Shown here one piece after another: positions 1,603 through 63,471 of a stretch of DNA of 64,000 nucleotides. The position numbers were made by a program, and so were the translations under genes. The stretch is from an uncultured virus (IMG/VR IMGVR_UViG_3300029305_009146). Lineage: Duplodnaviria > Heunggongvirae > Uroviricota > Caudoviricetes. Under the pieces are notes generated by a model. That model ran no database searches and had not been told where the DNA came from. It worked only from the letters and a program-made list of their open reading frames with translations. The DNA is taken from IMG/VR virus record IMGVR_UViG_3300029305_009146. The stretch is one strand, 5' to 3'. Position 1 is the first letter of the stretch, and each line of letters starts with the position of its first letter.

Positions 1603-1631
1603 GTTAAGGGAAAAATAACGCCTTATATAAA
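1603..1631 (-). promoter_or_regulatory. Element promoter-like motif TTTATA-N16-CCTTAAC
   Basis: Upstream of xis-int, after a terminator hairpin. Confidence 0.7.
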
Positions 1632-1664
1632 AAAAGAGGATGGAATTTTCTTCCATCCTTCTTT

Positions 1665-2225
1665 TTAGCAAAATCCTAACTCTTCATATCCCGCATCAGC
1701 GAAGTCCATTTGCTGTCCATCCACGCCCCGGCGCTGTTTTTCTTCTGCTTTTTCTTCTAAATTGTTAAGGAAGTTCTGAAGAATTTCTTTGGTAAAATCC
1801 CCGTACTCTTGACGCAGAGCTTTAGTCTCCACATAGACATTTTCCCAAAAGGAATCCACTTCCTGTCGGTTGGAATTGTCTGGGAGCAGTACCGGCGGGT
1901 CGTCGTATTTTCTTGAAAGCTCAACAAACTTTCCATAAAACCCGAACTCTGGAGAGCCTTTTTCAAAGGAATCTTCCTGCTGTTTTAAAATACGGTACTG
2001 GGCTTCCAAAACGCCTGCGCGTCGTTCCATCTCCTTCATAAAGCTCAGTACCATATTTTTGGCGTAGGATGTGGGATGCTTTTTCTCAACAAATTCTCTT
2101 GCGTCGTTATCGAGTCTCTGCCAGTACGCGTCCGTAGATAAGCCGTCTTTGTCAAACTCAATGTTCTTGTTTCTTTTCATGAATCTCCAAAAATCTGCAT
2201 AAAATGCATCGTTTGCTGCTTCCAT
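1665..2225 (-). CDS. Hypothetical protein with two internal helical repeats
   Basis: Start moved to MEAAND (AGGAGG RBS); FYxxF...DxxW...F...LExxA occurs twice. Confidence 0.7.
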   Translation of the reverse strand: MEAANDAFYADFWRFMKRNKNIEFDKDGLSTDAYWQRLDNDAREFVEKKHPTSYAKNMVLSFMKEMERRAGVLEAQYRILKQQEDSFEKGSPEFGFYGKFVELSRKYDDPPVLLPDNSNRQEVDSFWENVYVETKALRQEYGDFTKEILQNFLNNLEEKAEEKQRRGVDGQQMDFADAGYEELGFC

Positions 2226-2236
2226 AGTACACCTCC

Positions 2237-2833
2237 TTAAAACAACTCCGGACATTCCTGTGCCGGAATACCTCTTTTTCCCATCTCTTTCACATAACTG
2301 CGGTAAATAAGCTCAGCCACTCTTTCAGGAGGATAAATATCCCCATAAGAAGGGACGACAACATCTATCAGCATTTTTACATCTGCATAACGTTTGTAAT
2401 CAGATGAAATTCGGCGTTCCACCTCAGCTTCGCTCCAGTTTCGAGAAGCGATACGTTCCCTCATTACATCCTCAGGCAAAAAGAGCTGCGCAACAAAAAT
2501 TTCATCCTTCATGGGGCCTTCTTTAAGCATTTTTATTCCATCCGGAGAACATATCATAACCCGGTTCGAGGTATAATCATCAATAATCGAACCATAATAC
2601 CACGGTTTGTCATCGTCAGCTACATGGAATATTTCAAATTCCGCCAGCATGCCGGAATCAATCATCTGTTCAAAAGTTTTGTTGTCGGTACCATGATAGG
2701 TTTTGCCATCTATTTCGCCTGGGCGAAACGGTCTGGTTGTAAACCGGACAATCGGCTCTAAGCCGTAACGCTCTTTTAAAATCTTTAAAACTGTGTCCTT
2801 GCCGCATGTGGGCATTCCACAAAGAATCAGCAT
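2237..2833 (-). CDS. gmk: Guanylate kinase-like protein
   Basis: P-loop GMPTCGKDT, TTRPFRPGEIDGKTYH and YYGS motifs. Confidence 0.85.
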   Translation of the reverse strand: MLILCGMPTCGKDTVLKILKERYGLEPIVRFTTRPFRPGEIDGKTYHGTDNKTFEQMIDSGMLAEFEIFHVADDDKPWYYGSIIDDYTSNRVMICSPDGIKMLKEGPMKDEIFVAQLFLPEDVMRERIASRNWSEAEVERRISSDYKRYADVKMLIDVVVPSYGDIYPPERVAELIYRSYVKEMGKRGIPAQECPELF

Positions 2834-2835
2834 AA

Positions 2836-3078
2836 CTATCTCTCCATTTCTTCATCCTTACCTATTTTTATACAACAATCAGTCCCCGGAACAATCGCCA
2901 GCGTACTCCCTGTTGCCCAGGCTACGTGTATCTGTCCGGCGTCATCTACGTACCGTACAATGCCCCTGGTCCCGGGTTCCGGTGCTTGTTTATCATCCAT
3001 ATAGATAAGTTCCAGTTCTGCACCTGCCGGGTACTTTTTTCTGATTGCATCTACTTCTGCTCTGCTCGGAAATCTCAT
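2836..3078 (-). CDS. DUF4314 family protein
   Basis: KYPAGAELELIYMDD...GTRGIVRYVDDAGQIHVAW pattern; start MRFPS overlaps the upstream stop (ATGA). Confidence 0.8.
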   Translation of the reverse strand: MRFPSRAEVDAIRKKYPAGAELELIYMDDKQAPEPGTRGIVRYVDDAGQIHVAWATGSTLAIVPGTDCCIKIGKDEEMER

Positions 3079-4052
3079 CGCCCTATCTCCTCTTCCTGTT
3101 CTTTTTCTTCTGTATGAAAGGTTAGGTCTGTTTTCCATAATCCGTCACTTACCGCATACACATTGTGGACGCTCCACGGAAGTTGTTCGCGAAATCCGTA
3201 ACATTTATCGATGTCCGGAATAAGGTCGGCAATCATGAAATATGGAAGTTCTACATCTTTATCCAGTTCAATCTCAAGGACAGAACCTCCGCCATTCCAT
3301 TTGTCAAACAGTCCGCATTCTGTATTTTTAGGGATAGTGACAGTGCCGTTTTCCCCATGCTGGATATCATCTATCAATTTCATATAGTCAAGGAGCGGCA
3401 TTTTTATAAGAAAGATGAGTGCACCCATGCTTGATGTAAGATTTTCAAGCTCCGAGACAGCAGAAGACACAAAGCGGTCTTCCATTTTCACGGGGCCCGG
3501 GGACAAACAGTCCTTGACCGCTTTTCTTAAAAGCTCTTCTTTGCCTTGTTGTTTTGCCAGCCACAGGATGGAGGATTCTTCAGGGAACTCTCCGTCGCCG
3601 TTTGCAGCATAATTGAGAATATTGTTGCAGGTATAGTCATAGTCGGCGTCTCCGGAGTCTACAAAAAGAGTCAGGCACACGCTCCTGTTATAGTGTGCTT
3701 TATCCGCCTCGTAATGGACATGCTCTTCGAGCCACAACAAAATATCGTCCTTGAAATGCTCGAAAAGCTCAGCCGGAAGGGCTCCTTCAATTTTGTCCAT
3801 CAGCTCCGGATATTCATGTTCCCAACTCTTCTCGGTTTCCATATCATAGAAGTATTCATCCAGCGCTTCCCGCGGGAACTCTGCAGACATAATATCTTTT
3901 AAAGTGCAATTTTCTATTTCGTCCCGGTAATCAGCAAAAAGGGTAGAAAAATATTCCCCGTCTTCTTTCCGGTCCCAGTCTTCTTTATCCAGAATGTTCT
4001 TTATTATTGTTTCTATGCCATCCCAGAATATATCCATGTTTTCCTTTTCCAT
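3075..4052 (-). CDS. Acidic hypothetical protein
   Basis: 325-aa ORF with RBS, in operon orientation. Confidence 0.75.
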   Translation of the reverse strand: MEKENMDIFWDGIETIIKNILDKEDWDRKEDGEYFSTLFADYRDEIENCTLKDIMSAEFPREALDEYFYDMETEKSWEHEYPELMDKIEGALPAELFEHFKDDILLWLEEHVHYEADKAHYNRSVCLTLFVDSGDADYDYTCNNILNYAANGDGEFPEESSILWLAKQQGKEELLRKAVKDCLSPGPVKMEDRFVSSAVSELENLTSSMGALIFLIKMPLLDYMKLIDDIQHGENGTVTIPKNTECGLFDKWNGGGSVLEIELDKDVELPYFMIADLIPDIDKCYGFREQLPWSVHNVYAVSDGLWKTDLTFHTEEKEQEEEIGR

Positions 4053-4145
4053 AAAAATCTCCCTCTTTCGAATGCAGAATTATGAATTATGAATTAAGAA
4101 TGGTGGTATCTCCATTATTCCTTATTCATTATTCATTGTATCTCT

Positions 4146-4152
4146 GTTAAGG
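4146..4152 (-). promoter_or_regulatory. Element motif core (TTTTC)CCTTAAC
   Basis: Intergenic, upstream of 3075..4052; no TTTATT box at N16. Confidence 0.6.
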
Positions 4153-4162
4153 GAAAATTTTC

Positions 4163-4423
4163 TTAGATGACTTTTTGGTAATAATAAATAAGAATAAATC
4201 CGAGTGGCCACGGGATTATGGATATGACGTGTTTTGGAAGAACATCGTCCATATTTATAAAATCAAGCAAATCGTCCAGTGTTTCAAAATCACCTCTTTT
4301 GTAATATGAATCTGTTTTGCAATCTACGTTTGCGCATATCGGGCATTGCAACAGCAGTCCCTTTTTCTTTGGTGTAACCGTCCATTCTTCGCCAACATAT
4401 TTACAAAATTTACATTCTTTCAT
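4163..4423 (-). CDS. Small Cys-rich (zinc-binding) hypothetical protein
   Basis: CKFC and CPIC pairs; start at MKECKF with GGAGG RBS. Confidence 0.6.
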   Translation of the reverse strand: MKECKFCKYVGEEWTVTPKKKGLLLQCPICANVDCKTDSYYKRGDFETLDDLLDFINMDDVLPKHVISIIPWPLGFILIYYYQKVI

Positions 4424-4494
4424 GATTTTGTCCTCCTGTAATCTTTTATTTTCTTGCAAATCACAGGTTTTCACTGCTTTTTTCTTACAATACT

Positions 4495-4523
4495 GTTAAG
4501 GAAAATAATTAGGCACTTTTAAA
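4495..4523 (-). promoter_or_regulatory. Element promoter-like motif TTTAAA-N16-CCTTAAC
   Basis: One of a divergent pair of motif copies. Confidence 0.65.
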
Positions 4524-4532
4524 ATTTCTTTC

Positions 4533-4539
4533 CCTTAAC
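4533..4539 (+). promoter_or_regulatory. Element motif core (TTTC)CCTTAAC on + strand
   Basis: Only intergenic + strand copy seen; 32 nt upstream of the only + strand gene. Confidence 0.7.
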
Positions 4540-4571
4540 ATAAAGTGTATATACTTTGAAAGGAGAATTTT

Positions 4572-5453
4572 ATGGCAGACAAATACAGTTTTATTACAAT
4601 CAAGAAAATAAATTCTATGGGTGTGCTCAGCAAGGCATATTCTCACAACTACCGGACATCGTTTGTTCCTAACGCAGACAGTTCCCTTCACATGAAAAAC
4701 GAAGAGCTGGTCAACAAGAGCCACTTAAACTATAATGAACGCTGGGAACGTCGCATGAAAGAAGCCGGAGCAAAACTTGGGCGAAAAGATGCTGTCCGGG
4801 CATATGAAATCATTACAACCTATTCCGATACCGGATTTGTGGATGTGGAGGAATGGAAAAAAGACAATGTAAAATGGATGCAGGACTACTTTGGAAAAGA
4901 CAATGTGCTATCCATGATGTTTCACGGGGACGAGTGCGGGAATGTACATATCCACTCGATTGTAATTCCTATCGATGAACGAGGGCGCCTTTGTGCAAAG
5001 TCTTTCACGGGTGGTGCGAAAAAAATGCACGAGTTACAAAATTCTTACGGCGCAGCAATGGAAAAGCATGGTTTAAAGAGAGGTCTTGAAAACAGCAGAG
5101 CAAAGCACCAGGACATTCGCCGTTTTTATGCGGCACTCAATAACGCAGTTTCTGCTAAAATCCCGGAGAGAGAACAAGGAGAGGATTTCGAGGAGTATTT
5201 TAATCGTGTAAATACTTACCTGCAGGAAAAAGAACTCAAAAATCTTGGCGAAAAACAAGCATTAAAACGTGAGGTAGATGAAGCAAAGACGCATCTCTTC
5301 ACGTTTAAAAAGAAATACAAAAAGGCCATCAAGCTTCACGACACATGGGAAGGCCTTTACGGACTGGAAAGCACTGAAATGCAGTTTGACCGGCTTCTTG
5401 CAAAAACAGAAGAAAATAAACAGACTGCAAAGGAAAAGGAACTATCCGAATAG
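4572..5453 (+). CDS. mobV: MobV/Pre family relaxase (plasmid recombination enzyme)
   Basis: HNYR motif I and HGDECGNVHIHSIVIP HUH motif; coiled-coil C-terminus. Confidence 0.9.
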   Translation: MADKYSFITIKKINSMGVLSKAYSHNYRTSFVPNADSSLHMKNEELVNKSHLNYNERWERRMKEAGAKLGRKDAVRAYEIITTYSDTGFVDVEEWKKDNVKWMQDYFGKDNVLSMMFHGDECGNVHIHSIVIPIDERGRLCAKSFTGGAKKMHELQNSYGAAMEKHGLKRGLENSRAKHQDIRRFYAALNNAVSAKIPEREQGEDFEEYFNRVNTYLQEKELKNLGEKQALKREVDEAKTHLFTFKKKYKKAIKLHDTWEGLYGLESTEMQFDRLLAKTEENKQTAKEKELSE

Positions 5454-5474
5454 TTTTAAGAAACGTTATTTGAG

Positions 5475-5513
5475 AAAAAAGAAAAGAGCGGGGATAAAAC
5501 CCGCTCTTCTTTT
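5475..5513. terminator. Bidirectional intrinsic terminator
   Basis: AAGAGCGGG/CCCGCTCTT stem with A and T tracts between convergent genes. Confidence 0.85.
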
Positions 5514-5772
5514 ATAGTCTTTTGTATGGGAGCACAACAGTAAGCCCATGTCTAATTTTATGTTCCTTGCTCTCCCACTCTTCAAAACGTAAAATTTCGT
5601 CATCGGCAGAATAAGTGTCTCCATCTTTCGAGATTAACACTCCGGTACGACTACAGCAGATACCGGCAAAGAAATCATCTTCTTTGTCACATCCGGAAAT
5701 TTCTTTTGGTAAATCAATTCGGACCGAGATGTAATCATAGTCTTTTTTCTTAATTAAATCACCAAGCGTCAT
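5512..5772 (-). CDS. Hypothetical protein
   Basis: Start at MTLGDL with AAGGAGG RBS just after the recJ stop. Confidence 0.6.
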   Translation of the reverse strand: MTLGDLIKKKDYDYISVRIDLPKEISGCDKEDDFFAGICCSRTGVLISKDGDTYSADDEILRFEEWESKEHKIRHGLTVVLPYKRL

Positions 5773-5782
5773 AATATCCTCC

Positions 5783-7492: not shown

Positions 7493-7516
7493 ACGATACG
7501 TATAGCTCCTTATAGT

Positions 7517-7545
7517 GTTAAGGAAAAAAATTATAAAGAAATAAA
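7517..7545 (-). promoter_or_regulatory. Element promoter-like motif TTTATT-N16-CCTTAAC
   Basis: Exact match upstream of recJ. Confidence 0.75.
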
Positions 7546-7592
7546 AAAAAGAGTTGCTACGCAGATGCGCAACAACTCTAAAAAATGATTAT

Positions 7593-8333
7593 TTACTTCT
7601 TTTTCTTCTTTGTAAAGAGGAAAATTACCGCTATGGCGACAACGCCAGCACCTACGTAAAGACCTACCGGACTTTTCTTTTCCGGTTCAGGCTCCGGAGG
7701 AAGTTCAATCGGAGGAATCTTTTCCGGGTCTTTTACAATCGGTGTCGGTGCGACGGTTGGCGTCGCCGGAGCTTCTGTCGGTTCCGGAGCATTCGCTTCT
7801 TCGTCGGCCTTTTTCATTGCTGCGTAAGTGATGTCAAGCCACTCCTGCGGGCCTACAAGGCATGTTACATCTTCGAGCATACGTCCGACTAACATGCGCC
7901 CTTCCGGAAAAAGCTTGCAGGATGCAGAACCAAAGGTATCGCCGCTCACACGGCAGGAAACAAAATAATCACCCTGCGGAATATTAATTCTTTCTACCCA
8001 TAAGTTTTCTCCGTTATAATTTGCCGGGTTGAACTTATAAAAGTATTCATCTCCGGTTTCTTTGTCAAGGAAAACGATTCGAGTTACCTGGTTTTTGTAT
8101 TCGTCAGAGATATACAAATAAAAATTAACATTTCCATCCGCCCCGCAAAAAGCGCTAAGTTCTCCGGATGGCGGAATGGTATTGCTCGGTTCGCGGTTTG
8201 TCGGTTCGTGTCCTTCCTCATAAGTTATCTCGTTGTTTTCTTCCGGAAGCACGTTTTCCTCTGCAAAAGCCATTACGGAAGAACTAAACAACATAGTAAA
8301 TAACAAGCATAATCCAAAGATTTTCTTTTTCAT
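7593..8333 (-). CDS. Secreted protein with Pro-rich stalk and C-terminal membrane anchor
   Basis: Signal peptide, PT/PE linker, hydrophobic helix followed by KKKKK. Confidence 0.8.
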   Translation of the reverse strand: MKKKIFGLCLLFTMLFSSSVMAFAEENVLPEENNEITYEEGHEPTNREPSNTIPPSGELSAFCGADGNVNFYLYISDEYKNQVTRIVFLDKETGDEYFYKFNPANYNGENLWVERINIPQGDYFVSCRVSGDTFGSASCKLFPEGRMLVGRMLEDVTCLVGPQEWLDITYAAMKKADEEANAPEPTEAPATPTVAPTPIVKDPEKIPPIELPPEPEPEKKSPVGLYVGAGVVAIAVIFLFTKKKKK

Positions 8334-8420
8334 AAAAACTCTCCTTTCTTCTTGCGTAAGAACCTTGTACTATTGTAGCACATATTGTTGTAATACACAA
8401 GTCCTACTTGTTCTGTATAT

Positions 8421-8449
8421 GTTAAGGAAAATTTTTAGAGTAAAATAAA
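8421..8449 (-). promoter_or_regulatory. Element promoter-like motif TTTATT-N16-CCTTAAC
   Basis: Exact match, intergenic. Confidence 0.75.
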
Positions 8450-8473
8450 AAAAGAAGGATTCCTCCCTCTTTT

Positions 8474-9118: not shown

Positions 9119-9186
9119 AAAATTCCTCCATGAAAGTTATTCGAGAGAAATGGCAACAAATCCGATGCATGTTTACTCTCCTTTTT

Positions 9187-9193
9187 GTTAAGG
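9187..9193 (-). promoter_or_regulatory. Element motif core (TTTT)CCTTAAC
   Basis: Upstream of the PilZ gene. Confidence 0.6.
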
Positions 9194-9324
9194 AAAATCC
9201 AAAATAAATTTTCTCGAAGGCTATTCTGCAATGGTGATATTTTGTTATCGTCCGGAAAAAACTCCCCAAAAATAGCATTAACCCGGGCACAGAAAATTCC
9301 ATACCCGGGGATAATTTTTTATTC

Positions 9325-10332: not shown

Positions 10333-10365
10333 TCTTTGATTTTTCCATCATGAGCACCTCCGTGT

Positions 10366-13371: not shown

Positions 13372-13445
13372 AAAGCTCTCCTTTCTTTGTCCGAGACTAA
13401 AACATTTTGTAAGAGTTGTTTTAGCCTGTTGTTTTCCTTGCTATT

Positions 13446-13452
13446 GTTAAGG
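13446..13452 (-). promoter_or_regulatory. Element motif core (TTTT)CCTTAAC
   Basis: Intergenic, upstream of the 1001-aa gene. Confidence 0.6.
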
Positions 13453-13472
13453 AAAATAAAAATGAAAAACCG

Positions 13473-16106
13473 TTAATAAGCATAGGTTATTGTGAAGTTG
13501 CCACTGGTTTCAAACCATGTAATGCTGTCTTTCGCAACAAAACCGAAATTGAAAGCAGTTGTTCCTTCTGTCGTATTTGTTTTTATGTTCCTTAGCGCTG
13601 GCATGTTGTCGTTGACCTTCGTCCATGTAGTACCATTATCATAAGACAACCAACCATTTACTACGCCGTTCGTGCATGAACATTCCTTAAAACACAACGC
13701 ATTCGCGGAGTTTCCTGCTTCTACAATTCTAGTAGAGTTGCCCGCAAACAGAATATTCTGTGTTTCGTTCTTTCCTAAGAACCAGTATCCCTGGTCTTTT
13801 AAGCCTTCCGGGATGGTATAACTGCCATCAATGACAGACACAAACGTGTTTGCACTAAAGCCTCTGTAGGTTGCAGATACTGTGTATTTACCGACTGTTG
13901 TCAGGTCAATTCCGCTCTGATTTATAACGGCTTCATCGGACACATCTGCGGTGGAGCCGTCTGCATAAGTGGCAATAACTGTATATGCATCATTAGAATC
14001 AGACTCTCCTAACAGAATGTTTCCGTTTCTGCTGACAGTAATCTTTGTGACAGGGTTGAATACGTATTCACCAAGCTCTGCATATTGCGCACGGGTTACC
14101 ACTTCTATTTTTCCGGTATCCTCTAAATCCTTAAGGTAATCAAACAATTCTCTCCATTTTGCTATATCCGGCTCATCATTAAACGGCATATGCCAGTAAA
14201 TCTCTACAGACCGGCCCGGTTCAACCTGGTCTATCCAGCCCTGGATTTTGGAAAAGTTGCCGCCGTATCTAAGCAAGTCGTACTCCGAAGAAGCGGTAAT
14301 CGTACCGGTCACGCTCACGCCGACTCTTCCCCCGACTGCAGTATAGCCCATTCCTCTCCAGTCGTAATTATTTATATTACCTATCTGTCTTAAGTCAAAT
14401 TCAACGCCATCAACCGTCGCGGTAGGAGTGCCGCCCCAGTTTCCGACAGTTTTAATCGGGAATCCGTATGCCTCTTCCAATATCTCCCTTGAATCAGCTA
14501 TATAAGGAGCCCCCTGTGCAACGTCCGTGTCGGCAAGCTGTATCATAATTTCGTTACGCAGCTCCTCTTCTGTCCTGGTTCCACCCTGGTCTGTATAAGA
14601 AGTATGCAATTCTGTAAGAAAATCACCGGTAAGATAAGTACTATCCCAGATTTTCTTGCTTGAAGAACCATGCTGTGCTACTTCACCTAAGTCATTGTCG
14701 TAAAGATATTTACCTAATGTAACAACATCGACACCATCAGGGAATAATGCCGGAGCGTCGTCTTCCGTAAACATGGTATCGTCTACATCAGAACCTAATG
14801 CTTTTGCAATGTTTTCGGCCTCTACGTTCATGGTATACGGGAAGTCATAGGTCCTCAGCAATCTGAAAAACTTTGCATTTCCGACATTGTCGTCATCCGT
14901 ACCAAGAATCAAATATTTCTTATCAGTCGTGTTCTTTAGCTGCCACGTGCCTGTCGGCAGGATTTCTTCGTCCTCAGACGGGTCTGAAACGTCCGGCGTT
15001 ACCTGCGGAGTAACAGAAGGTGTCACCTCCGGCGTCACGCCCGGAGTTGTGTTCCCGGGAGCATTTCCTCCATCCGAGCAGAGTTCCGCGACAAAGAGCA
15101 CTTGAAGGGATAATTCCCTCTTTTCTTTAAAACTACGTCCGTAATGCGCTTCCAGTTCAAGAGGTGCAGTTACTTTTCCTGCAACAATTCCCAGCGGGGA
15201 AAGTTCAGACACATTGTCGGCATAGACATATTCGTTGGCAAGTCTTTCCTGCCAGCCGGTATCTGCAGCATTTATTCCAATAGAAAGATATTCTGCGCTC
15301 TGTTCTCCGTTTAAAGCATCCCATGAAAGCCCCGTTGCAGACTCTATCTCGTCGGGAGCCAGCAAGGTAAAGGCCCCATCCTTTTGAGCAAAGCCACCAA
15401 CGGATATTTTAACCGGTGCCAATGCATTGTTTTGTACAGAGATATCGCCGTAGGTAAAGCCGTCTTCTACATTCGGATTGATAGTACACGTTACGTTAAG
15501 CGGAACTGTTACGCTTATTTCGGTGGTATGCATAGTGACGTCGATTGTCATAGAATAATTCCCCTGTGCATTTCCCGGCGATGGAGTCCAACCCGTATAG
15601 GTATAAGAAAAATTGCTGTGAGGACAATCCTCTAATTCTGCTATTCCGTCACGGTAATCGAAATTACTGTGGGTAATGAGCTCGACGTTGTCAAACGGAG
15701 ATGAACTGTTAAGAGTGAAAGTGCCAGAGCCCTTAAACGGTTCAGCACTTTCAACGTATTCATAGATGCCATCCGTATTTGTGTCGGTAAAAACATACTG
15801 ATTAAAAGTTCCTTCTCTGTACAGATAGTATTTCTCGTCGGAGAGTCCTGCGGTCGGTTTTTCGTCATCTAAGATAAACGTAATCACCGGATTCCCCTGG
15901 TTATCAGTCGAAGAGTGAATAACAATATAATTGCATTCAGACACAGCCTGTAAAAAATCGACTTTTGTATTAAAGTCCTCAATTTCGGTCTCCAAATTTG
16001 GGAGGCCTTCGTTCATTTCTCCGGCCAGCGCTTCCACCGGGGTGCTCATAGCACAAAGACCAAGAACCATGCAAAGGCATAAAAATATGGATAATAACTT
16101 TTTCAT
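13473..16106 (-). CDS. Secreted protein: internal VPL...FVAEL domain, VTP linker, polysaccharide-deacetylase-like domain, Ig-like domain (paralog 3)
   Basis: LILGTDD, EVAQHG and IYWH resemble NodB/CE4 motifs; VIATYADGS...VGKYTVSATY is Ig-like. Confidence 0.75.
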   Translation of the reverse strand: MKKLLSIFLCLCMVLGLCAMSTPVEALAGEMNEGLPNLETEIEDFNTKVDFLQAVSECNYIVIHSSTDNQGNPVITFILDDEKPTAGLSDEKYYLYREGTFNQYVFTDTNTDGIYEYVESAEPFKGSGTFTLNSSSPFDNVELITHSNFDYRDGIAELEDCPHSNFSYTYTGWTPSPGNAQGNYSMTIDVTMHTTEISVTVPLNVTCTINPNVEDGFTYGDISVQNNALAPVKISVGGFAQKDGAFTLLAPDEIESATGLSWDALNGEQSAEYLSIGINAADTGWQERLANEYVYADNVSELSPLGIVAGKVTAPLELEAHYGRSFKEKRELSLQVLFVAELCSDGGNAPGNTTPGVTPEVTPSVTPQVTPDVSDPSEDEEILPTGTWQLKNTTDKKYLILGTDDDNVGNAKFFRLLRTYDFPYTMNVEAENIAKALGSDVDDTMFTEDDAPALFPDGVDVVTLGKYLYDNDLGEVAQHGSSSKKIWDSTYLTGDFLTELHTSYTDQGGTRTEEELRNEIMIQLADTDVAQGAPYIADSREILEEAYGFPIKTVGNWGGTPTATVDGVEFDLRQIGNINNYDWRGMGYTAVGGRVGVSVTGTITASSEYDLLRYGGNFSKIQGWIDQVEPGRSVEIYWHMPFNDEPDIAKWRELFDYLKDLEDTGKIEVVTRAQYAELGEYVFNPVTKITVSRNGNILLGESDSNDAYTVIATYADGSTADVSDEAVINQSGIDLTTVGKYTVSATYRGFSANTFVSVIDGSYTIPEGLKDQGYWFLGKNETQNILFAGNSTRIVEAGNSANALCFKECSCTNGVVNGWLSYDNGTTWTKVNDNMPALRNIKTNTTEGTTAFNFGFVAKDSITWFETSGNFTITYAY

Positions 16107-16118
16107 CTGACTCCTCCT

Positions 16119-17411: not shown

Positions 17412-17465
17412 TTTCTTGTTGCTATAGAATTACAGTATGGAATGCCGTAAAACAGCCTCCATACT

Positions 17466-17472
17466 GTTAAGG
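17466..17472 (-). promoter_or_regulatory. Element motif core (TTTC)CCTTAAC
   Basis: Intergenic. Confidence 0.6.
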
Positions 17473-17490
17473 GAAATATTTTTTAAGAAA

Positions 17491-18366
17491 CTACTCCAGA
17501 AGCTCAACCACGAAGGTTGCGGCAAAAGAGAAGTTTTGTTCTGTGGCAAAGGCCTTGCCATAATATACCTGTAAGCCCAAGTAAGCAGTGCTTTGTCCGT
17601 CAATCACGCCCAGTTCTGTCTTCTTGAATGTCGGCGAGGTATAAACATATCCTTTTGAACGGTCTTCCCTCCAAAAAACGTTCTTGTACTCAATCGGACG
17701 GATACCGATAGCTACGTAACGTAATGTTTCGCTTACACTTAAATTGTCCCAATAGAGCCCGTCCGGGAGTTCTTCGGGGCGAATGCAGTTCTGGAACGGG
17801 ATACCGGTAGTATTAAAGTCCTTGATGCTTACCACAACCGGAGCTTTGGTATGGTTCTGGACTTCGATTGCACCGAAAACAAATCCGTTTTCTGCGTTTG
17901 GGTCAATATATACGTCTACGGTCAACGGGATGGTAACACAAACCACAGTAGCTTCTACAGAAGCAACGAATTCGGTACTGGTCGTGGTAGATGGCATCTC
18001 TGTAACAACAACCTCCGGAACATCTGTGGGAACGGGCAGACCTTCGGTCGGTTCTACTGCGTCACCGGTATCATCCGGAATGAGAGTTTCTTCCGAAGGT
18101 TCAACAGTTTCGAGGTTTTCTTCTGCGGGAGCGTCTTCAGCAGGAAGTGTAATTTCGGGCTCTGTCTGTACAAGAGACCCTTCCACGACCGACTCCGTCA
18201 AACCCTCAGAAACTTCATCTCCCACGCTTGCAGATTCTTCTGTTGTAAGAATACTTTCTTCTGTTGTAAGAATACTTTCTTCTGTTGCGTATGCCGGGAA
18301 CACGTTGGTTCCGGCAATACTAAGAGTTAAAATACAAAAACACAACACACCGCTTAGCTTTCTCAT
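17491..18366 (-). CDS. Secreted protein, VPL...FVAEL family paralog 1 (acidic low-complexity N-terminus)
   Basis: Signal peptide, TEESILT 21-bp tandem repeat, shared domain ending TFVVELLE. Confidence 0.85.
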   Translation of the reverse strand: MRKLSGVLCFCILTLSIAGTNVFPAYATEESILTTEESILTTEESASVGDEVSEGLTESVVEGSLVQTEPEITLPAEDAPAEENLETVEPSEETLIPDDTGDAVEPTEGLPVPTDVPEVVVTEMPSTTTSTEFVASVEATVVCVTIPLTVDVYIDPNAENGFVFGAIEVQNHTKAPVVVSIKDFNTTGIPFQNCIRPEELPDGLYWDNLSVSETLRYVAIGIRPIEYKNVFWREDRSKGYVYTSPTFKKTELGVIDGQSTAYLGLQVYYGKAFATEQNFSFAATFVVELLE

Positions 18367-18400
18367 AATGTTAATAATCCCTCCTTACTCGATAACATGT

Positions 18401-19093: not shown

Positions 19094-19113
19094 TGTTATG
19101 TAATACTGATACT

Positions 19114-19142
19114 GTTAAGGGAAAAATAAAGATAAAAATAAA
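19114..19142 (-). promoter_or_regulatory. Element promoter-like motif TTTATT-N16-CCTTAAC
   Basis: Exact match heading the surface cluster. Confidence 0.75.
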
Positions 19143-19180
19143 AAAAGTGGGAAGAAATTAGTATTTCCTCCCATTTTTTC

Positions 19181-20188: not shown

Positions 20189-20221
20189 AACTACTCCTTT
20201 TAAAAATATCATTTCTTCCTT

Positions 20222-20228
20222 GTTAAGG
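20222..20228 (-). promoter_or_regulatory. Element motif core (TTTTT)CCTTAAC
   Basis: Upstream of ruvB. Confidence 0.6.
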
Positions 20229-20289
20229 AAAAACAAAGTAAAAAAGGAGCCACACGGGCTCCTTGTGGTTAATTGCGTTTCGCGATATT

Positions 20290-28279: not shown

Positions 28280-28368
28280 TTGTACGCGTCGCCATCGGCT
28301 CATCCTTGTCCGGCTCGGCAGCGGCGCGCGTGCTCGAAATAATTTGCTCTGTAATTTCTTACGTTATT

Positions 28369-28397
28369 GTTAAGGGAAAAAATTTGCAGAAAATAAA
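28369..28397 (-). promoter_or_regulatory. Element promoter-like motif TTTATT-N16-CCTTAAC
   Basis: Exact match heading the tRNA array. Confidence 0.75.
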
Positions 28398-28415
28398 AGT
28401 TTTTGATGTTTTTTT

Positions 28416-29238: not shown

Positions 29239-29274
29239 ATCATTCTCCTTTCTCATGAAGTTGCTTATGTATAC

Positions 29275-29303
29275 GTTAAGGAAAAAATATAGCCCGGAAT
29301 AAA
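29275..29303 (-). promoter_or_regulatory. Element promoter-like motif TTTATT-N16-CCTTAAC
   Basis: Exact match. Confidence 0.75.
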
Positions 29304-29324
29304 TTTTCCGGGCCAAATCTTTTC

Positions 29325-29948: not shown

Positions 29949-30000
29949 AATTTTTCCTCCTTATAAAAACAAACCTCTAAAAGCGACATCTTATATATAT

Positions 30001-30029
30001 GTTAAGGCAAAAAATAAGGCCGGAATAAA
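30001..30029 (-). promoter_or_regulatory. Element promoter-like motif TTTATT-N16-CCTTAAC
   Basis: Exact match. Confidence 0.75.
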
Positions 30030-30056
30030 AATTCCGAGCCCTGATTTTTATAAGTA

Positions 30057-36823: not shown

Positions 36824-36893
36824 GGAAAAATCTCCTTTCAGTAAAATTTTTATAACAATCGCTCTTTTCTTGAAATACTGTTTGTACAATATA

Positions 36894-36922
36894 GTTAAGG
36901 AAAAAATAAAGCCCGGAATAAA
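36894..36922 (-). promoter_or_regulatory. Element promoter-like motif TTTATT-N16-CCTTAAC
   Basis: Exact match. Confidence 0.75.
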
Positions 36923-36967
36923 AATTCCGAGCTCCGGGTTAACATATTTCATTATACAAAATGCTGT

Positions 36968-39416: not shown

Positions 39417-39493
39417 AAAATCTACCTCCCTTTATCGAATGTAGAATTATGAACGAGGTATCCAATTCTACATTCTAAATTGTAATTATTATT

Positions 39494-39522
39494 GTTAAGG
39501 AAAAAATTATGAAGGAAATAAA
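39494..39522 (-). promoter_or_regulatory. Element promoter-like motif TTTATT-N16-CCTTAAC
   Basis: Exact match. Confidence 0.75.
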
Positions 39523-39534
39523 AAAGAGCAGAAT

Positions 39535-44124: not shown

Positions 44125-44159
44125 TTTGATGCCTCCTCGGTAAAATTCAACTCATATAC

Positions 44160-44188
44160 GTTAAGGAAAAAATAAGGGCTGTTTTAAA
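44160..44188 (-). promoter_or_regulatory. Element promoter-like motif TTTAAA-N16-CCTTAAC
   Basis: Intergenic, after a terminator. Confidence 0.65.
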
Positions 44189-44237
44189 AGTTTTTAACAA
44201 AAAAGCCTGCAAATTGCAGGCCTTCTGTTATAAAATT

Positions 44238-44879: not shown

Positions 44880-44896
44880 AAAAACTCCTCCTGTGA

Positions 44897-45364: not shown

Positions 45365-45374
45365 CTCTCCTTTT

Positions 45375-45405
45375 AAAAGGGGAGGGGAAAACCCCTCCCC
45401 TTTTT
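45375..45405 (-). terminator. Intrinsic terminator after the giant adhesin
   Basis: GGGGAGGGG/CCCCTCCCC stem flanked by A/T tracts. Confidence 0.8.
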
Positions 45406-53774: not shown

Positions 53775-53862
53775 AAATACCACTCCTTTTTGTTATACTC
53801 TCCCGCTGCAGTTGGCAGCGGGATGTATTATAAAGCTCTTGGCTGCTTTGCGCTATGTATCT

Positions 53863-53891
53863 GTTAAGGGAAATAATTTATCAAAAATAAA
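53863..53891 (-). promoter_or_regulatory. Element promoter-like motif TTTATT-N16-CCTTAAC
   Basis: Exact match. Confidence 0.75.
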
Positions 53892-53893
53892 AC

Positions 53894-55042: not shown

Positions 55043-55076
55043 AAAATACTCCTTTTTCTAAATTATTTCTTTTGTT

Positions 55077-55106
55077 GTTAAGGAAAAAAATATAATGAAA
55101 AATAAA
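55077..55106 (-). promoter_or_regulatory. Element promoter-like motif TTTATT-N17-CCTTAAC
   Basis: Spacer one base longer than consensus. Confidence 0.7.
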
Positions 55107-55136
55107 AAAGAGGCTTGTTCCAGCCTCTTCTTTTTC

Positions 55137-56029: not shown

Positions 56030-56033
56030 AAGA

Positions 56034-58946: not shown

Positions 58947-59181
58947 AATGACTTCTCCTTTATCTGATATTCAGCAGCTTCTTTTAGTCGCTTGCTGCGA
59001 TAGAGCCGATTCCCTTTGCAAACCTCACAGGAGCCGTGACATCTACAGGTGGCGTCAACCGCCTGTGCACCGTAATACGGTTTTCTTTTTTCTTTGCCGT
59101 GCTTAATGGCTTTATCAAGGCTCATATAGGCCCACTCCCTTTCAAAATGTAATAAACTTAATTCAAAATTATCCTACTTCT

Positions 59182-59210
59182 GTTAAGGAAAAAATAAGAG
59201 TAAAAATAAA
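59182..59210 (-). promoter_or_regulatory. Element promoter-like motif TTTATT-N16-CCTTAAC
   Basis: Exact match. Confidence 0.75.
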
Positions 59211-59261
59211 AAAAGGAAAGGTGTTCAACCTCTCCTTTTACTTTCTCGTCATGTTTTTCTG

Positions 59262-59609
59262 TTACTTCAATAACTCCAGCAGCTCTTTCTTGTCTTTCCC
59301 GGACAGCTTATTCCTTTTTGTCACGAGCCTTACAAATTCCGGTAAAGAGCCGCCAAACTTGTCATTTACAAGGTCAGTCGCGACTTTCGCCTTATACTCT
59401 TCCTCACTCATTACCGGAGTTACAACGCAATTTACGTTCTGAAATAATCCATGTTCGCAAATTCTTCTGAGCATTGTGTATGTGGTTGACTTTGCCCAGC
59501 CAAATTCCTCCTTGCAGAGTTTCACCACGTCTCCGGACCGTATTTCCTTTCTGTCCCATAACAGCCTTGCCATTCTCATTTCCATTTCGCCAATACCAAA
59601 TCTCTGCAT
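59262..59609 (-). CDS. BlaI/MecI/CopY family repressor
   Basis: E.RMARLLW, WAKSTTYTMLRR, FGGSLPEFV. Confidence 0.88.
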   Translation of the reverse strand: MQRFGIGEMEMRMARLLWDRKEIRSGDVVKLCKEEFGWAKSTTYTMLRRICEHGLFQNVNCVVTPVMSEEEYKAKVATDLVNDKFGGSLPEFVRLVTKRNKLSGKDKKELLELLK

Positions 59610-60830: not shown

Positions 60831-61073
60831 TTACTCCTTTCTTCGGACAATCTCTAATACATCCGCACAATCCAAATAGGCGTTTCCGTTATATTCTGCA
60901 AGTTCTTCCAGCTCCGCCACCTTTGCTTCCACATCGTAGGCGGTAGGCTGTTCCTTTATAAGCTTTTCCATCTGCATAAAACCTTCTGCAAGGTTGTTTG
61001 GAACAATGTCCTTTTTCTCTTTAAATCGTTTATCCATTACACTAAGCAACAAATCCGCATCAATCAACCGCAT
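60831..61073 (-). CDS. Phage-type small protein
   Basis: MRLIDAD...IKEQPTAYDV pattern. Confidence 0.65.
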   Translation of the reverse strand: MRLIDADLLLSVMDKRFKEKKDIVPNNLAEGFMQMEKLIKEQPTAYDVEAKVAELEELAEYNGNAYLDCADVLEIVRRKE

Positions 61074-62017
61074 GGTATCACTCTCCTTTCATATCATGGC
61101 TCCGGATTCTCGTTTACCTTAATCAATACTTGTTTATCATCAACATTGTATGCGATTTCTCCTGTGGTCTCATAATCAATGTACCCCACACCGCTTCTCT
61201 CAAGGTTTTCCATTGCTTTTCTAACTTCATTCATAATCAAAGTTTCAATATGCGACATGCTATCACTCCTTTCCTTCGCTCCAATCAAGTGCAGTTCCGC
61301 ACTCTTCGCAACACTTGGAACGTGTACCACCGCACCAACTACCATCTATTTTTGAAATCAGCTTATAATTACAAGACGGACAACGGTAAGTTTTGCAACT
61401 ATATTTCGGACTAAATACATCAATAACAACCGGCTTCCTTGCTGTTGCCTTTTCCTTCATCTGCTCCCACTCTTCGGCTTCCTTGTTCGTGAGGATTCTA
61501 CCCTTGGTATATAAGTGCTCGACTACTTCCTTTACAGTGATTCCACTCAGTTTTTCTTCCAATGCTCTGTACTGTTGGACTTCTTCAATGGCTTTCAAGC
61601 AGATTTCCTTCACTTCTTCGCACTCCACGGAATCAAGGCTTTCTTCCGGTCGCATTGATAATTCGGAATCGAACCACTTCTTTACCTTTTCGCTCTCCGT
61701 CATACTCATTCTCCTTCCTTTTTGCTCACCGAAAAGGTAATATCCAAATCTAATACATTGCCGTTGATTTCAAAAGTCAATCCGATATTGTCTGTTTGGT
61801 TTTCCATACATACTTTAAGCAAATCTGCAATATCTTGCATAAATCCTTCTGAAAAAGTTTTATCTTCCGCCTTTGTGGAATTCGTAATTACGCAAGTTTG
61901 CTCGTTACTTCGTCCAACAAAACGCTTACACAAACTGCAATATATTCCATCTGCATAAATTTCCGATGCCCCACAGTCTATACACTTCTTTTTCTCAACC
62001 GTCATACTCATTTCCGC

Positions 62018-62530
62018 TTACCTCTCTTTCTCTAACAGTTCGGGATTGTCGAATACGTTGCCGATAACTTCACAATCAAAGAAATCTCCCCAATTTCCGC
62101 AGCAATAAATTCCATAATCCTTTATTTTTACGCTCCATTCCGCGCTGTATTCACGGTATTTATCGTGCGTTTCTGTTTCCTCGTTGTAGAATCCACTGCC
62201 TTTTCCGATGTCGTATTCTACAACTCCGATATGCCTTTTCGTCTTTCGGTTCTTCGCATACGGTTTATCCGAATACTCCTGCGTTCTAACAATATCATTC
62301 TCCCAAATCTTCCGTCCGTTCTTGTCGGTAAGTCCGGTATCGTCACAAAGGGTTTCAATGTCAATTTCCACCTGTATCTGTTCAATCGGTGTACCCTTAC
62401 TCAAATCAGCACCAATCGGGATGATGAAATGGTGTTCGTGCCGTTTATCATCATGCACCATGCAGAAATAAAACCCTTCCACCCATTCCTTGTTGTCCTT
62501 TCGCTTTGCTTTGCAAATCTTACTTTTCAT
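62018..62530 (-). CDS. YopX family phage protein
   Basis: TGLTDKNGRKIWENDIV and EVIGNVFDNPELL. Confidence 0.88.
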   Translation of the reverse strand: MKSKICKAKRKDNKEWVEGFYFCMVHDDKRHEHHFIIPIGADLSKGTPIEQIQVEIDIETLCDDTGLTDKNGRKIWENDIVRTQEYSDKPYAKNRKTKRHIGVVEYDIGKGSGFYNEETETHDKYREYSAEWSVKIKDYGIYCCGNWGDFFDCEVIGNVFDNPELLEKER

Positions 62531-62835
62531 TCTGTTCTCCTTTCTCCGCAAGTGCGTCTTCGGCTTTTTCTTTGGCTGTGAACCATTCTTTTCCGTATTC
62601 ATCCCACATCACACCCAAAAACATCATATCCGCTTCGTTCGCCTTTATTTGTCCGTTGGATTGTATAATATATACCGTATCTCCTACCTTGCATGGCAAC
62701 CGCAGGAGAAGTCCTTGTTCCTCTGCCGTTTCATACTCCTTCAACTTCTTCTGAACCTCGATAATGTAGTCATTTTCCACATCCTCAACCTTCCCTTTGA
62801 ATGTGTAAATATCGTCTACCAATCTCTCCATTCCG

Positions 62836-63249
62836 TCACTCTCCTATCTGAAAATCATTCATCACGATGTCGTTTCGTAGCTTGTGCCATCCGTACATAT
62901 CATCCGGAGTCAACTGATTCTTCCATTCATCCCATTTAGACGGCACAAATACTGTCCATTCCTTTTCCGGGAGGGAAATACTGAGGTCATCCGGTGCCTT
63001 ATCATCCACATTAAGAGGCGGCTTCCACAGATTGATAAAGTAAATCTCATACAGATTCATGTCTGCTTCCGACTGGAACTCCGTGTACTCTATCTTTGTT
63101 ACATTGTGGATATTGATTGCCCGGTGCATCGGCTTCGCGAACATATGCCCTCTTATCCGTGCCTGCAATGGCTGTTTCGTTCTTCCGAGATATGCAAGGT
63201 GTTTTCCGTACCATATCCGATACAGTAAAAATCCTTTTGGACTAGACAT
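62836..63249 (-). CDS. GIY-YIG nuclease family protein
   Basis: LLY...YLGRT..L..RIRGH...E..FI....PPLN. Confidence 0.75.
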   Translation of the reverse strand: MSSPKGFLLYRIWYGKHLAYLGRTKQPLQARIRGHMFAKPMHRAINIHNVTKIEYTEFQSEADMNLYEIYFINLWKPPLNVDDKAPDDLSISLPEKEWTVFVPSKWDEWKNQLTPDDMYGWHKLRNDIVMNDFQIGE

Positions 63250-63442
63250 GTGTACCTCCTATTCATCAAACAGTTCTTTTGATGTGTTATATGGCGCTAA
63301 TATGTGCACCGCCACTGGCGATGGTTATCCCAATTAACCTTTTTAAGATATTTACAGCCTTTGCAGGAAAGATTCTTACGCTTTGACTTACCTTTCTTTC
63401 TCTTACACTTGAATCCCATGCAATCACTCCTTTTCTATGTAT

Positions 63443-63471
63443 GTTAAGGAAAATAATTAGACCAAAATAAA
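63443..63471 (-). promoter_or_regulatory. Element promoter-like motif TTTATT-N16-CCTTAAC
   Basis: Exact match. Confidence 0.75.

Follow-up and report, generated by a model that had tools for sequence, protein, structure and literature searches.

An invariant intergenic word, CCTTAAC, as a probable transcription start signal of a phage-like integrative element

We analyzed a 64,000-nt stretch of DNA (the window) from a contig of at least 154.5 kb, which belongs to a phage-like integrative element of large size from bacteria of the animal gut. The word CCTTAAC stands at 21 intergenic sites in the window, each given here by its core, with the whole site and its weight-matrix score in parentheses, and on the − strand unless stated otherwise. 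At the left end, the core 1603–1609 (1596..1633; 33.3 bits; hairpin and T tract upstream) heads a Tn916-type excisionase ORF (1355–1573) and an integrase (148–1281). The weakest site, 4146–4152 (4139..4176; 15.4 bits), lacks an upstream box and heads a 325-aa gene (3075–4052), and a divergent pair follows: its left member, 4495–4501 (4488..4525; 31.2 bits), heads ORF 4163–4474, and 4533–4539 on the + strand (4509..4546; 22.1 bits) heads a MobV-type relaxase (4572–5453). A RecJ-like gene (5783–7492) lies behind 7517–7523 (7510..7547; 38.1 bits; terminator 7579–7550), a 246-aa gene (7593–8333) behind 8421–8427 (8414..8451; 33.9 bits; terminator 8475–8448), and a PilZ-domain gene (8474–9118) behind 9187–9193 (9180..9217; 19.0 bits), where no box is found at N16. 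The core 13446–13452 (13439..13476; 27.7 bits) heads a 1001-aa repeat protein (10366–13371) and then 9325–10332; 17466–17472 (17459..17496; 26.6 bits) heads 16119–17411 and 13473–16106; and 19114–19120 (19107..19144; 40.0 bits; terminator 19173–19148) heads 18401–19093 and 17491–18366. The core 20222–20228 (20215..20252; 22.8 bits) precedes a RuvB-like gene with a probable start at about 20185.

The second half of the window is organized similarly. The core 28369–28375 (28362..28399; 37.4 bits), with a box and no hairpin, heads a tRNA array running from 28279 to 23655, which includes a HEARO RNA and an IscB-like gene. Genes 28930–29238 and 28416–28940 lie behind 29275–29281 (29268..29305; 31.8 bits), where TTTATT falls inside a hairpin loop or arm, and 29325–29948 behind 30001–30007 (29994..30031; 36.3 bits), the only site with a G before the core. 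Longer blocks are headed by 36894–36900 (36887..36924; 35.4 bits; from about 36850 down to Tpt1, 30057–30650), by 39494–39500 (39487..39524; 39.5 bits; terminator 39551–39520; from 39416 down to 36968), and by 44160–44166 (44153..44190; 28.8 bits; from 44124 down to a VirB4-like ATPase gene, 39535–40641). The core 53863–53869 (53856..53893; 35.7 bits), again with a box and no hairpin, heads 53347–53589 and a 2617-aa secreted protein (45413–53266), and 55077–55083 (55070..55108; 31.6 bits; box at N17) heads 54461–55042 and 53894–54448. The last two sites each head a small ORF and a block: 59182–59188 (59175..59212; 37.4 bits) down to a dUTPase gene (55137–55712), and 63443–63449 (63436..63473; 39.4 bits), where the small ORF is Cys-rich, down to a BlaI-like gene (59262–59609).

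The CCTTAAC pattern is real. All 21 intergenic coordinates given in a preliminary description of this DNA were found by exact match, and the window holds 23 exact copies in total, compared with a mean of 8.25 (sd 2.52, largest 16) in 100 dinucleotide shuffles, none of which reached 23. Their placement is skewed as well: noncoding DNA makes up 12.6% of the window and contains 21 of the 23 copies (binomial P = 2.7e-17), a share computed from a hand-adjusted gene set and not from the longest ORFs. Three gene starts (the RuvB-like gene and the genes whose coordinates open at 28930 and 36128) were shifted manually to the first ATG 3′ of the motif preceded by a Shine–Dalgarno sequence; with the longest ORFs, the copies at 20222, 29275, and 36894 lie inside 5′ ORF extensions. 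The two intragenic copies, 1764 and 22265, are both on the − strand and without a T run, and the word is depleted within genes (2 vs. 8.7 in codon shuffles, P = 0.017). Of the intergenic copies, 20 are on the − strand and 1, at 4533, on the + strand. The motif heads 21 gene blocks and would divide the element into at least 21 transcription units in the window, but the proposal of a single regulon for the whole replicon was overstated, as 14 of 30 gaps of at least 40 nt in the adjusted gene set have no copy.

Across the 21 sites, the consensus including the T run is TTTyCCTTAACA, with the 7-mer and the preceding TTT identical in all and adjoining columns reaching at most about 1 bit. In the weight-matrix scan, the sites scored 15.4–40.0 bits and only three other window positions exceeded 12 bits; as these three (12.9–13.8 bits) lie within the range of best scores from 20 shuffled windows (6.3–14.2 bits), variants of the core with one mismatch are not in use. 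A box was found exactly 16 nt upstream as TTTATT in 11 sites, TTTAAA in 2, and TTTATA in 1, with TTTATT at N17 in site 55077 and no box in 6. These counts reproduce the earlier ones exactly. The accompanying term "bipartite" is weakened, and "core plus T run" is the stronger description, because the box is absent from the 6 sites and often coincides with the T tract of a terminator. The box is not merely a terminator tail, however, since TTTATT stands at N16 even in the hairpin-free sites 28369 and 53863, and at 29275, 30001, and 36894 the hairpin is shifted and the box lies in its loop. Sites 29275, 30001, and 36894, and likewise 28369 and 53863, are visibly copies of each other, and shared ancestry may thus account for part of the constancy in spacing.

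The motif was described as usually standing just after a terminator, and with folds read by eye we found a hairpin and T tract directly upstream of it in 13 of the 21 sites. Intrinsic-terminator-like sites are enriched both in 1–20000 (36 vs. 18.4 expected) and in 28300–45400 (27 vs. 14.0 expected). Such hairpin–T tract–core composites resemble PeSLs, the composite terminator/early-promoter cassettes of T4-like phages (PMC4122927), which likewise combine a small stem-loop terminator and a promoter between small variable genes and occur in many repeats. One could thus think of the recent spread of a single composite cassette, a PeSL-like mobile joint, and not of selection by a special reader. 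Some copies are clearly derived from one another (families D2, D3, and D7 and three hairpins with a CCGGAA stem). Moreover, in contigs of two runs, 20192 is followed directly by 20258, and the 65 nt missing there, before the RuvB-like gene, comprise the hairpin with its T tract, the core, and the ribosome-binding site; this possible cassette-sized indel between variants would fit gain or loss as a unit, but the joint rests on sides of 51–52 nt with 80% likeness, in a region where contigs of other organisms pile up. Outside the core and T run, the cassette copies are only 60–86% alike, whereas the 7-mer is 100% identical in all 21, which indicates selection on the word CCTTAAC itself. With the depletion within genes also against it, we find spread alone a very improbable account; it would explain the dispersal of the sites but leave their function unaddressed, and a promoter function is compatible with it. 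The promoter part of PeSLs is read by the host polymerase, whereas the word here does not match the sigma-A consensus.

The orientation of the copies points to a 5′ signal. As first described, each of the 21 is oriented with the gene that follows it, including the one + strand copy, which stands before the sole + strand gene. Between the divergent genes 4163–4474 (−) and 4572–5453 (+) lie two copies only 31 nt apart, each facing its own gene, while the convergent ends 5453/5783 share a two-way terminator and have no copy. The copy said to head the tRNA array precedes the first tRNA (28279) by about 90 nt. Clear Shine–Dalgarno sequences begin 17 nt (63443) and 24 nt (1603) downstream of the core's first C, too close for the core to be a −35 box. 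The divergent pair, the following ribosome-binding sites, and the copy before the tRNA array support CCTTAAC as a 5′, promoter-type signal and not a 3′ signal, with a predicted start point within about 16 nt of the word. That 22 of the 23 copies lie on one strand, all in transcribed-sense orientation, might also suggest a word acting in RNA, as a processing site or 5′-leader element, or a polar DNA signal unrelated to transcription, used, for instance, by a translocase or in recombination. Either role seems scarcely credible: strand-oriented architecture signals are not restricted to intergenic DNA and would not flip for a single opposite gene, an RNA role would require the promoters of the divergent pair to lie inside the other gene's leader, 31 nt away, and the leaders beyond +16 have no common structure or sequence.

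Counting from the first C of the core, a purine occupies position +13 in 20 of the 21 sites (with purines making up 0.62 of the local sequence, P = 6e-4, which is only modestly significant at 0.02 after correction for 33 positions), with a pyrimidine at +12 in 15 and the pyrimidine–purine step at +12/+13 in 15. A purine also occupies +7, right after the invariant C, in 20 of 21 (18 A and 2 G). The +13 register, of sigma type, and the +7 register, of phage-polymerase type, fit equally well. The suggested sigma70 two-box geometry stands as to spacing, and its predicted +1 is a purine in 20 of 21, but a start at +7 is also allowed. In the sigma-type register, CTTAAC would occupy −12 to −7 and TTTATT −35 to −30. 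The defining bases of sigma70-group −10 boxes are A at −11 and T at −7, and CTTAAC has neither there, a point against the proposed reading. The reported mismatch to the sigma-A consensus is upheld. A host sigma-A promoter was rejected as the identity of the sites, and consensus sigma-70-type sites are not enriched (43 vs. 38.8 expected in 1–20000; 29 vs. 39.5 in 28300–45400).

The word might instead be an operator, the asymmetric site of an element repressor that would silence every unit of the resident element, with weak host promoters in the AT-rich surroundings. A parallel is provided by the stoperators of cluster A mycobacteriophages, 13-mers that bind the repressor and stop elongation (PMC9283540). 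The likeness extends to more than 20 asymmetric sites, an invariant word, short intergenic spaces, orientation following transcription, and a temperate element; the element here is integrative. Hexamers starting with TA follow the core in about 17 of the 21 sites as read by eye, but they lack a −35-like box at a suitable distance, and no other conserved promoter element was found. Unlike stoperators, the sites here stand behind terminators, with ribosome-binding sites a fixed, short way downstream, and their T run in fixed register and frequent upstream box have the layout of a start signal. Because the sites follow terminators, something must restart transcription there. One copy heads a tRNA array, and no repressor candidate was linked to the sites. 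Repression thus seems decidedly unlikely as their function, and the most likely role of TTTyCCTTAACA is that of a transcription start signal belonging to the element.

As a start signal peculiar to the element, TTTyCCTTAACA would form the promoter core, with an optional TTTATT box 16 nt upstream and often a terminator hairpin just before it: most units would run to an intrinsic terminator, with transcription of the following unit beginning a few bases downstream of the core. The most likely reader would be a divergent sigma70-family factor with the host core polymerase, in which case transcription would begin at the purine lying 7 nt past the core. A phage-type RNA polymerase of the element itself comes second; for this enzyme the core would span −7 to −1, and the A right after it would be the start. 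Searches of the window ORFs with Pfam, PHROGs, and NCBIfam, also at lax thresholds, revealed neither a sigma factor nor an RNA polymerase nor any other candidate for this role. From these sequence features, we infer that transcription starts at the motif sites and that the reader of the signal is an element-encoded factor outside the window. A promoter core specific to the element and read by such a specificity factor appears probable to us, with considerable room for doubt.

A host factor could also read the promoters, either an alternative sigma or sigma-A together with an element-encoded activator bound at CCTTAAC. The lack of a reader in the window would suit this, a sigma-dependent multisubunit polymerase would match the geometry, and the motif precedes the xis/int operon (1603) and the relaxase gene (4533), for which an incoming or resident integrative element would need host machinery; their expression would be simpler if the host polymerase recognized the motif without help. 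The core, however, is without the degeneracy usual for host sigma regulons, and a host regulon should give several matches per genome, although the host may be outside the collection. In scans of three public collections, a two-box pattern that recovers only 7 of the 21 window sites gave single scattered matches at 40 loci in viral_contigs, 87 in genome_contigs (one genome per species, 185,579 species), and 47 in metagenome_contigs. Each of the 80 genome loci listed, out of 87, comes from a different assembly, and their mostly intragenic contexts suggest chance matches. In the pattern scans of these collections, the T-run core never occurred more than twice at one locus; the motif's designation as private is borne out within them. 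We regard a host reader as unlikely.

Promoters peculiar to a phage are of a known kind, of which the CCTTAAC sites would be a new member. The T4 late promoters, for example, are phage-specific and read by a phage sigma factor. Bacillus phage SPO1 uses host sigma-A for early, Gp28 for middle, and Gp34 for late transcription (PMC13401047). The element resembles such systems in having many copies of one nonhost promoter-like word over a large phage genome with a Gram-positive-type host, and in a two-box geometry with 16–17 nt spacing in which the −10-region word carries most information. It differs in that no sigma gene was found in this window and in that the same word heads xis/int, the relaxase gene, and the tRNA array, with no recognizable single temporal class. 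To our knowledge, the CCTTAAC words do not match the SPO1 or T4 consensus sequences. Phage-encoded RNA polymerases comprise the T7 group and two-barrel single-chain enzymes, and AR9 and phiKZ-type phages reportedly have virion and nonvirion polymerases with their own promoters. Promoters of phage polymerases share with the sites here a near-invariant contiguous word (about 12–17 nt) with an AT-rich upstream part, an AT-rich stretch downstream, and a purine start; they are private to a phage lineage and often fused to terminators. On the other hand, this window has no polymerase gene, the conserved stretch of T7-group promoters is longer, and, as far as we know, a separate box at a −35-like distance is not expected for phage-encoded polymerases. 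Distant homologues of the 325-aa protein (3075–4052) mark 80 viral loci, none of which contained the T-run core; among cultured phages, the only homologues of this protein are in records of Bacillus subtilis phages, 38 in number and about 153–163 kb long.

The word CCTTAAC was found 23 times in the 64-kb window, compared with 8.25 copies (sd 2.52) in dinucleotide shuffles, and none of 100 shuffles reached 23. With a hand-adjusted gene set, 21 of the 23 copies fall in the non-coding 12.6% of the window (P = 2.7e-17); in this set, three gene starts were moved 3′ of the motif, in each case to the nearest ATG that has a ribosome-binding site, and under longest-ORF gene calls the same three sites lie within 5′ ORF extensions. 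The two extra copies (1764 and 22265) are intragenic and lack the preceding T run, and the word is rarer within genes than expected from codon shuffles (2 vs. 8.7, P = 0.017). All 21 coordinates listed in the preliminary description were found in the window. When aligned on the core, the 21 sites gave the consensus TTTTTATTT, followed by about 12 variable nucleotides and then wwwTtTTTyCCTTAACA. The 7-mer and three preceding T nucleotides are identical in all 21 sites, and the columns flanking the core carry at most approximately 1 bit each. The base 5′ of the core is T in 13 sites, C in 7, and G in 1; at the position 3′ of the core, 18 sites have A and 2 have G. Compared as repeat families, the surrounding cassettes are only 60–86% alike. 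The weight-matrix scores of the sites range from 15.4 to 40.0 bits, and only three other positions in the window scored above 12 bits (12.9–13.8). As these fall inside the range of best scores in shuffled windows (6.3–14.2), the element uses no one-mismatch variants of the word.

At all 21 sites, the word points in the same direction as the gene that follows it. As all genes of the window but one are on the minus strand, a signal before a gene is normally hard to separate from one after a gene. The exception is informative: between the divergent genes at 4163–4474 (minus) and 4572–5453 (plus, MobV-type relaxase) there are two back-to-back copies, 31 nt apart and each oriented towards its own gene, and the convergent gene ends at 5453/5783 contain a two-way terminator and zero copies of the word. 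Together with a copy that precedes the first tRNA gene of the array by approximately 90 nt, this arrangement identifies the word as a 5′ signal. Clear Shine–Dalgarno starts follow the first C of the core by 17 nt at site 63443 and by 24 nt at site 1603 (sites are named by the start of the core). With Shine–Dalgarno sequences this close, an mRNA that includes them must start within approximately 16 nt of the core, which places the core at or just before the start and rules it out as a −35 box; we regard it as highly improbable that the word is instead an RNA-level or architecture signal. We also considered TTAACA as a −35 box with a −10 box 16–18 nt 3′ of it and rejected this reading, as the place is taken by Shine–Dalgarno sequences or start codons and a weak match was found at only 2 of the 10 sites in 1–20000.

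Upstream of the core, TTTATT or a close variant stands at a distance of 16 nt from CCTTAAC (17 nt from CTTAAC) at 14 of the 21 sites and 1 nt farther away at one, and six sites have no such box. The preliminary counts of 11 copies of TTTATT, two of TTTAAA, and one of TTTATA at the 16-nt spacing, with one more at 17 nt, were thus exact, and the sites with a box show two conserved boxes at the 16–18-nt spacing of the sigma70 family. A hairpin and a T tract lie directly 5′ of the core in 13 of the 21 sites (this count, like several gene starts and the finding of TA-starting hexamers 3′ of the core at about 17 of the 21 sites, was judged by eye or by hand), and in most of these the TTTATT box is part of the terminator T tract. 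Sites 28369 and 53863 have the box at the 16-nt spacing though they lack a hairpin. At sites 29275, 30001, and 36894, the hairpin is shifted: the box lies in the loop and the 3′ arm, and the T run adjacent to the core makes the terminator tail. The hairpins of these three (29290–29315, 30020–30037, and 36908–36935, minus strand) are near-identical CCGGAA/TTCCGG structures and form a trio of paralogous terminator–promoter joints in a register unlike that of the other ten hairpin sites. Within each of the two groups, 28369/53863 and 29275/30001/36894, the sites are visibly copies of each other, and the fixed spacing of the box may therefore owe something to common descent.

The two stretches scanned (1–20000 and 28300–45400) each had approximately twice as many intrinsic-terminator-like sites as their shuffles. 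With terminators this frequent, transcription would often be stopped, and the sole conserved candidate for restarting it is the CCTTAAC word. The combination resembles the composite terminator–promoter cassettes known as PeSL (PMC4122927), in that a stem-loop terminator is directly followed by a promoter and the unit is repeated between small genes (13 of the 21 sites here). A recent, PeSL-like spread of cassettes could by itself have left the sites conserved, and a 65-nt skip that removes the entire cassette before the RuvB-like gene, seen in the contigs of two of the four sequencing runs compared, speaks for such mobility. The skip is nevertheless weak, its sides being 51–52 nt at 80% likeness in a place where foreign contigs pile up, and spreading accounts for the distribution of the cassettes but not for their function; we consider it a very unlikely explanation. 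At the skip, contigs of runs X7 and X14 have two other letters in place of 20193–20257, directly between 20192 and 20258, and the 65 nt missing comprise the hairpin, the T tract, the core, and the ribosome-binding site of the RuvB-like gene. The difference may represent gain or loss of a cassette, or the contigs of another organism.

The A at −11 and T at −7 of the housekeeping −10 box are absent from every register of CCTTAACA, and a scan for the sigma-70-type consensus gave no excess in either stretch (43 vs. 38.8 in 1–20000 and 29 vs. 39.5 in 28300–45400). By both results the word is not a sigma-A promoter, though an alternative sigma factor may read it, and they bear out the earlier remark that the boxes are unlike those of SigA (TTGACA/TATAAT). 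The promoter part of PeSL cassettes is by definition a host early promoter, whereas the sites of the window lack sigma-A-type boxes.

Judged from the sequence, two start registers fit the sites equally well. In the sigma-type register, CTTAAC would serve as the −10 box (−12 to −7) and TTTATT would occupy −35 to −30, with a spacer of 17 nt. At the +1 predicted on this basis, 13 nt past the first C of the core, 20 of the 21 sites have a purine, a modestly significant excess (P = 6e-4 for a local purine share of 0.62; 0.02 when corrected), and position +12 is a pyrimidine in 15 of the 21. A multisubunit polymerase working with a sigma70-family factor has this geometry, in line with what the preliminary description had proposed. 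In the phage-polymerase-type register, transcription would start at +7 and the conserved word would run up to the start. Here, 20 of the 21 sites have a purine (A in 18) right after the invariant last C of the core, and the sequence is AT-rich upstream of the word and A/T-rich downstream of it. Promoters of phage-encoded polymerases have such a layout, with a conserved word up to the start, an AT-rich upstream part, and A/T-rich sequence downstream.

No match to sigma factor or polymerase families was found among up to 72 ORFs of the window in searches of Pfam, PHROGs, and NCBIfam (Pfam threshold 1e-3, with 51 of the ORFs also searched at 0.1). According to family search, the large ORFs of the window are secreted repeat proteins, and an aspartate-triad pattern of our own choosing gave one poor match. 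The 325-aa protein encoded at 3075–4052 has records on four contigs. As the longest of these measures 154,507 bp, the window covers less than half of the element, and we infer that a reader of the word is encoded by the element there. Tentatively, we propose that the element, of at least 154.5 kb, could run its own orthogonal transcription, with a novel sigma-like factor or polymerase that reads only TTTyCCTTAACA, the word heading every unit, and the cassettes acting as movable, insulating joints. Under such a system, the word would stand in front of the xis/int operon and the relaxase gene, of host-type genes acquired by capture (RuvB, PilZ), and of the tRNA array together with the IscB/HEARO insert inside it, and the terminator–promoter joints would insulate the units and could be moved ahead of newly captured genes.

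The main argument for a reader encoded by the host, either an alternative sigma factor or an activator, comes from the xis/int operon and the relaxase gene, as both of these also have the word in front of them. We find a host reader unlikely; zero mismatches among 21 copies is more typical of phage polymerases or phage sigma factors than of host regulons. The word could also be a stoperator-like repressor site placed over weak AT-rich promoters, for which the stoperators described in PMC9283540 provide the comparison. The sites share the stoperator-type features of asymmetry, location in short intergenic spaces, and an orientation that follows transcription (21 of 21), but the sole repressor-like gene seen, of the BlaI/CopY family at 59262–59609, shows no link to the word, and a repressor site seems to us quite unlikely. 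If the word nevertheless is one, stoperator-type silencing of a whole genome would extend from mycobacteriophages to Firmicute elements.

Matches to the two-box pattern, which recovers 9 of the 21 window sites in its first form and 7 or 5 in stricter forms, were no more than single and scattered in public collections (viral_contigs, 40 loci; genome_contigs, 87; metagenome_contigs, 47). Among these pattern matches, no locus of the three collections had more than two copies of the T-run core; a doublet at the metagenome loci L330, L350, and L365 was rejected as one unrelated sequence. No assembly occurred twice among the 80 contig names listed for the 87 genome_contigs loci, and the contexts, mostly intragenic, look like chance matches. 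The 14-nt exact core gave unrelated singles among the viral_contigs matches listed. The T-run core was absent from 80 viral loci around distant homologues of the 325-aa protein (∼31–37% identity), whose top repeated 9-mers are tandem repeats or coding words. These loci share only that protein with the window, three other window proteins matching one to three loci each, and thus say little about true relatives. Nearer homologues of the 325-aa protein numbered two (58–60%) and were on short contigs. The 1001-aa protein (10366–13371) matched 0 loci in viral_contigs, the RecJ-like protein matched none in viral_contigs or metagenome_contigs, and the protein scans found no relative with synteny to the window. 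Megablast of 28000–40000 against phages returned a tRNA-Lys match only, and neither megablast of 1–12000 nor tblastn of the 325-aa protein gave anything against plasmids. The element or its close variants are present in 17 DNA sequencing runs, which belong to 12 studies that sampled animal faeces or gut.

Private promoter words of large phages and composite terminator–promoter joints are both well known. The T4 sigma factor reads private promoters, and phages of the T7 group and of the AR9/phiKZ type have their own polymerases with private promoters. SPO1 is a further example of phage sigma factors reading private promoter words (PMC13401047). The consensus found here is new in that it is not known from other phages, and none of the literature titles listed for the word CCTTAAC concerned a promoter containing it. 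The setting is unusual in that int/xis, mob, and tRNA units of an integrative mosaic share one word. Should an element-encoded factor start transcription at these sites, one protein and a 12-nt word would make an orthogonal expression switch for gut Firmicutes that are hard to engineer. The same reading would offer a simple way of mapping transcription units in an uncultured element that spans at least 154 kb and consists mostly of genes without a known function, and would mean that a temperate integrating element ties integration, transfer, and tRNA genes to a promoter that the host housekeeping polymerase should not read. It would then have to be asked how such genes are first expressed once the element has entered a cell.

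The gene content looks like a mosaic of phage-like and conjugative-element-like parts. Family searches identified a Tn916-type excisionase (4.4e-22) and a tyrosine integrase at the left end (within 148–1573), the MobV relaxase (4572–5453, plus), and a 368-aa ORF (39535–40641; 1.5e-17) whose similarity is to VirB4-like conjugation ATPases of the CD1110 family, in their C-terminal half; beside these stand phage-type genes (YopX, dUTPase, and RecJ-like), which, with a RuvB-like gene, form a group for DNA and nucleotide metabolism. Strong Shine–Dalgarno sites make a Firmicute host likely. Domains of a host-signalling type occur in a PilZ-domain protein (8474–9118, minus), in a 615-aa protein with a methyl-accepting chemotaxis signalling (MCP) domain (21767–23614, minus), and, as a weak HPr-like match, in an 80-aa ORF (53347–53589, minus). 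The 2617-aa secreted protein (45413–53266, minus) combines a signal peptide with DUF285/BspA-type LRR domains and a long tail rich in Thr and Pro. Four adjacent large ORFs of 335, 1001, 877, and 430 aa (9325–17411, minus) have no family match apart from one weak Big_3, and share repeated segments among themselves (repeat families D8, D11, D13, and D15).

The tRNA array consists of 11 genes, 10 called by ARAGORN and one by Rfam only (27914–27981, minus; 43 bits). ARAGORN gave a four-base anticodon to the tRNA at 25994–26071 (minus), which is a tRNA according to Rfam as well. Near the array, a Tpt1/KptA RNA 2′-phosphotransferase gene (30057–30650, minus) and a HAD domain of ‘Swiss Army Knife’ RNA repair proteins (31980–32471, minus) suggest a tRNA repair module. 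Inside the array, an IscB-like gene (RRXRR and HNH domains, 435 aa) lies directly 3′ of a full-length HEARO RNA (27585–27796; 160.5 bits), and the two together (26247–27796, minus) are a predicted OMEGA-type RNA-guided nuclease module. A TnpB-type gene with OrfB_IS605 and Cas12f1-like TNB domains (20448–21608, minus) is located between the MCP-domain and RuvB-like genes, and no copy of the motif precedes it. Contigs pile up to 19× word depth in this region, with 19309–20642 covered by all four runs and 20643–21299 mainly by run X9. Finally, small Cys-rich ORFs of approximately 40 and 60 codons (63250–63420 and 58950–59160, minus) lie directly 3′ of sites 63443 and 59182; both have a good ribosome-binding site and were missed at the ORF cut-off of 60–80 aa.
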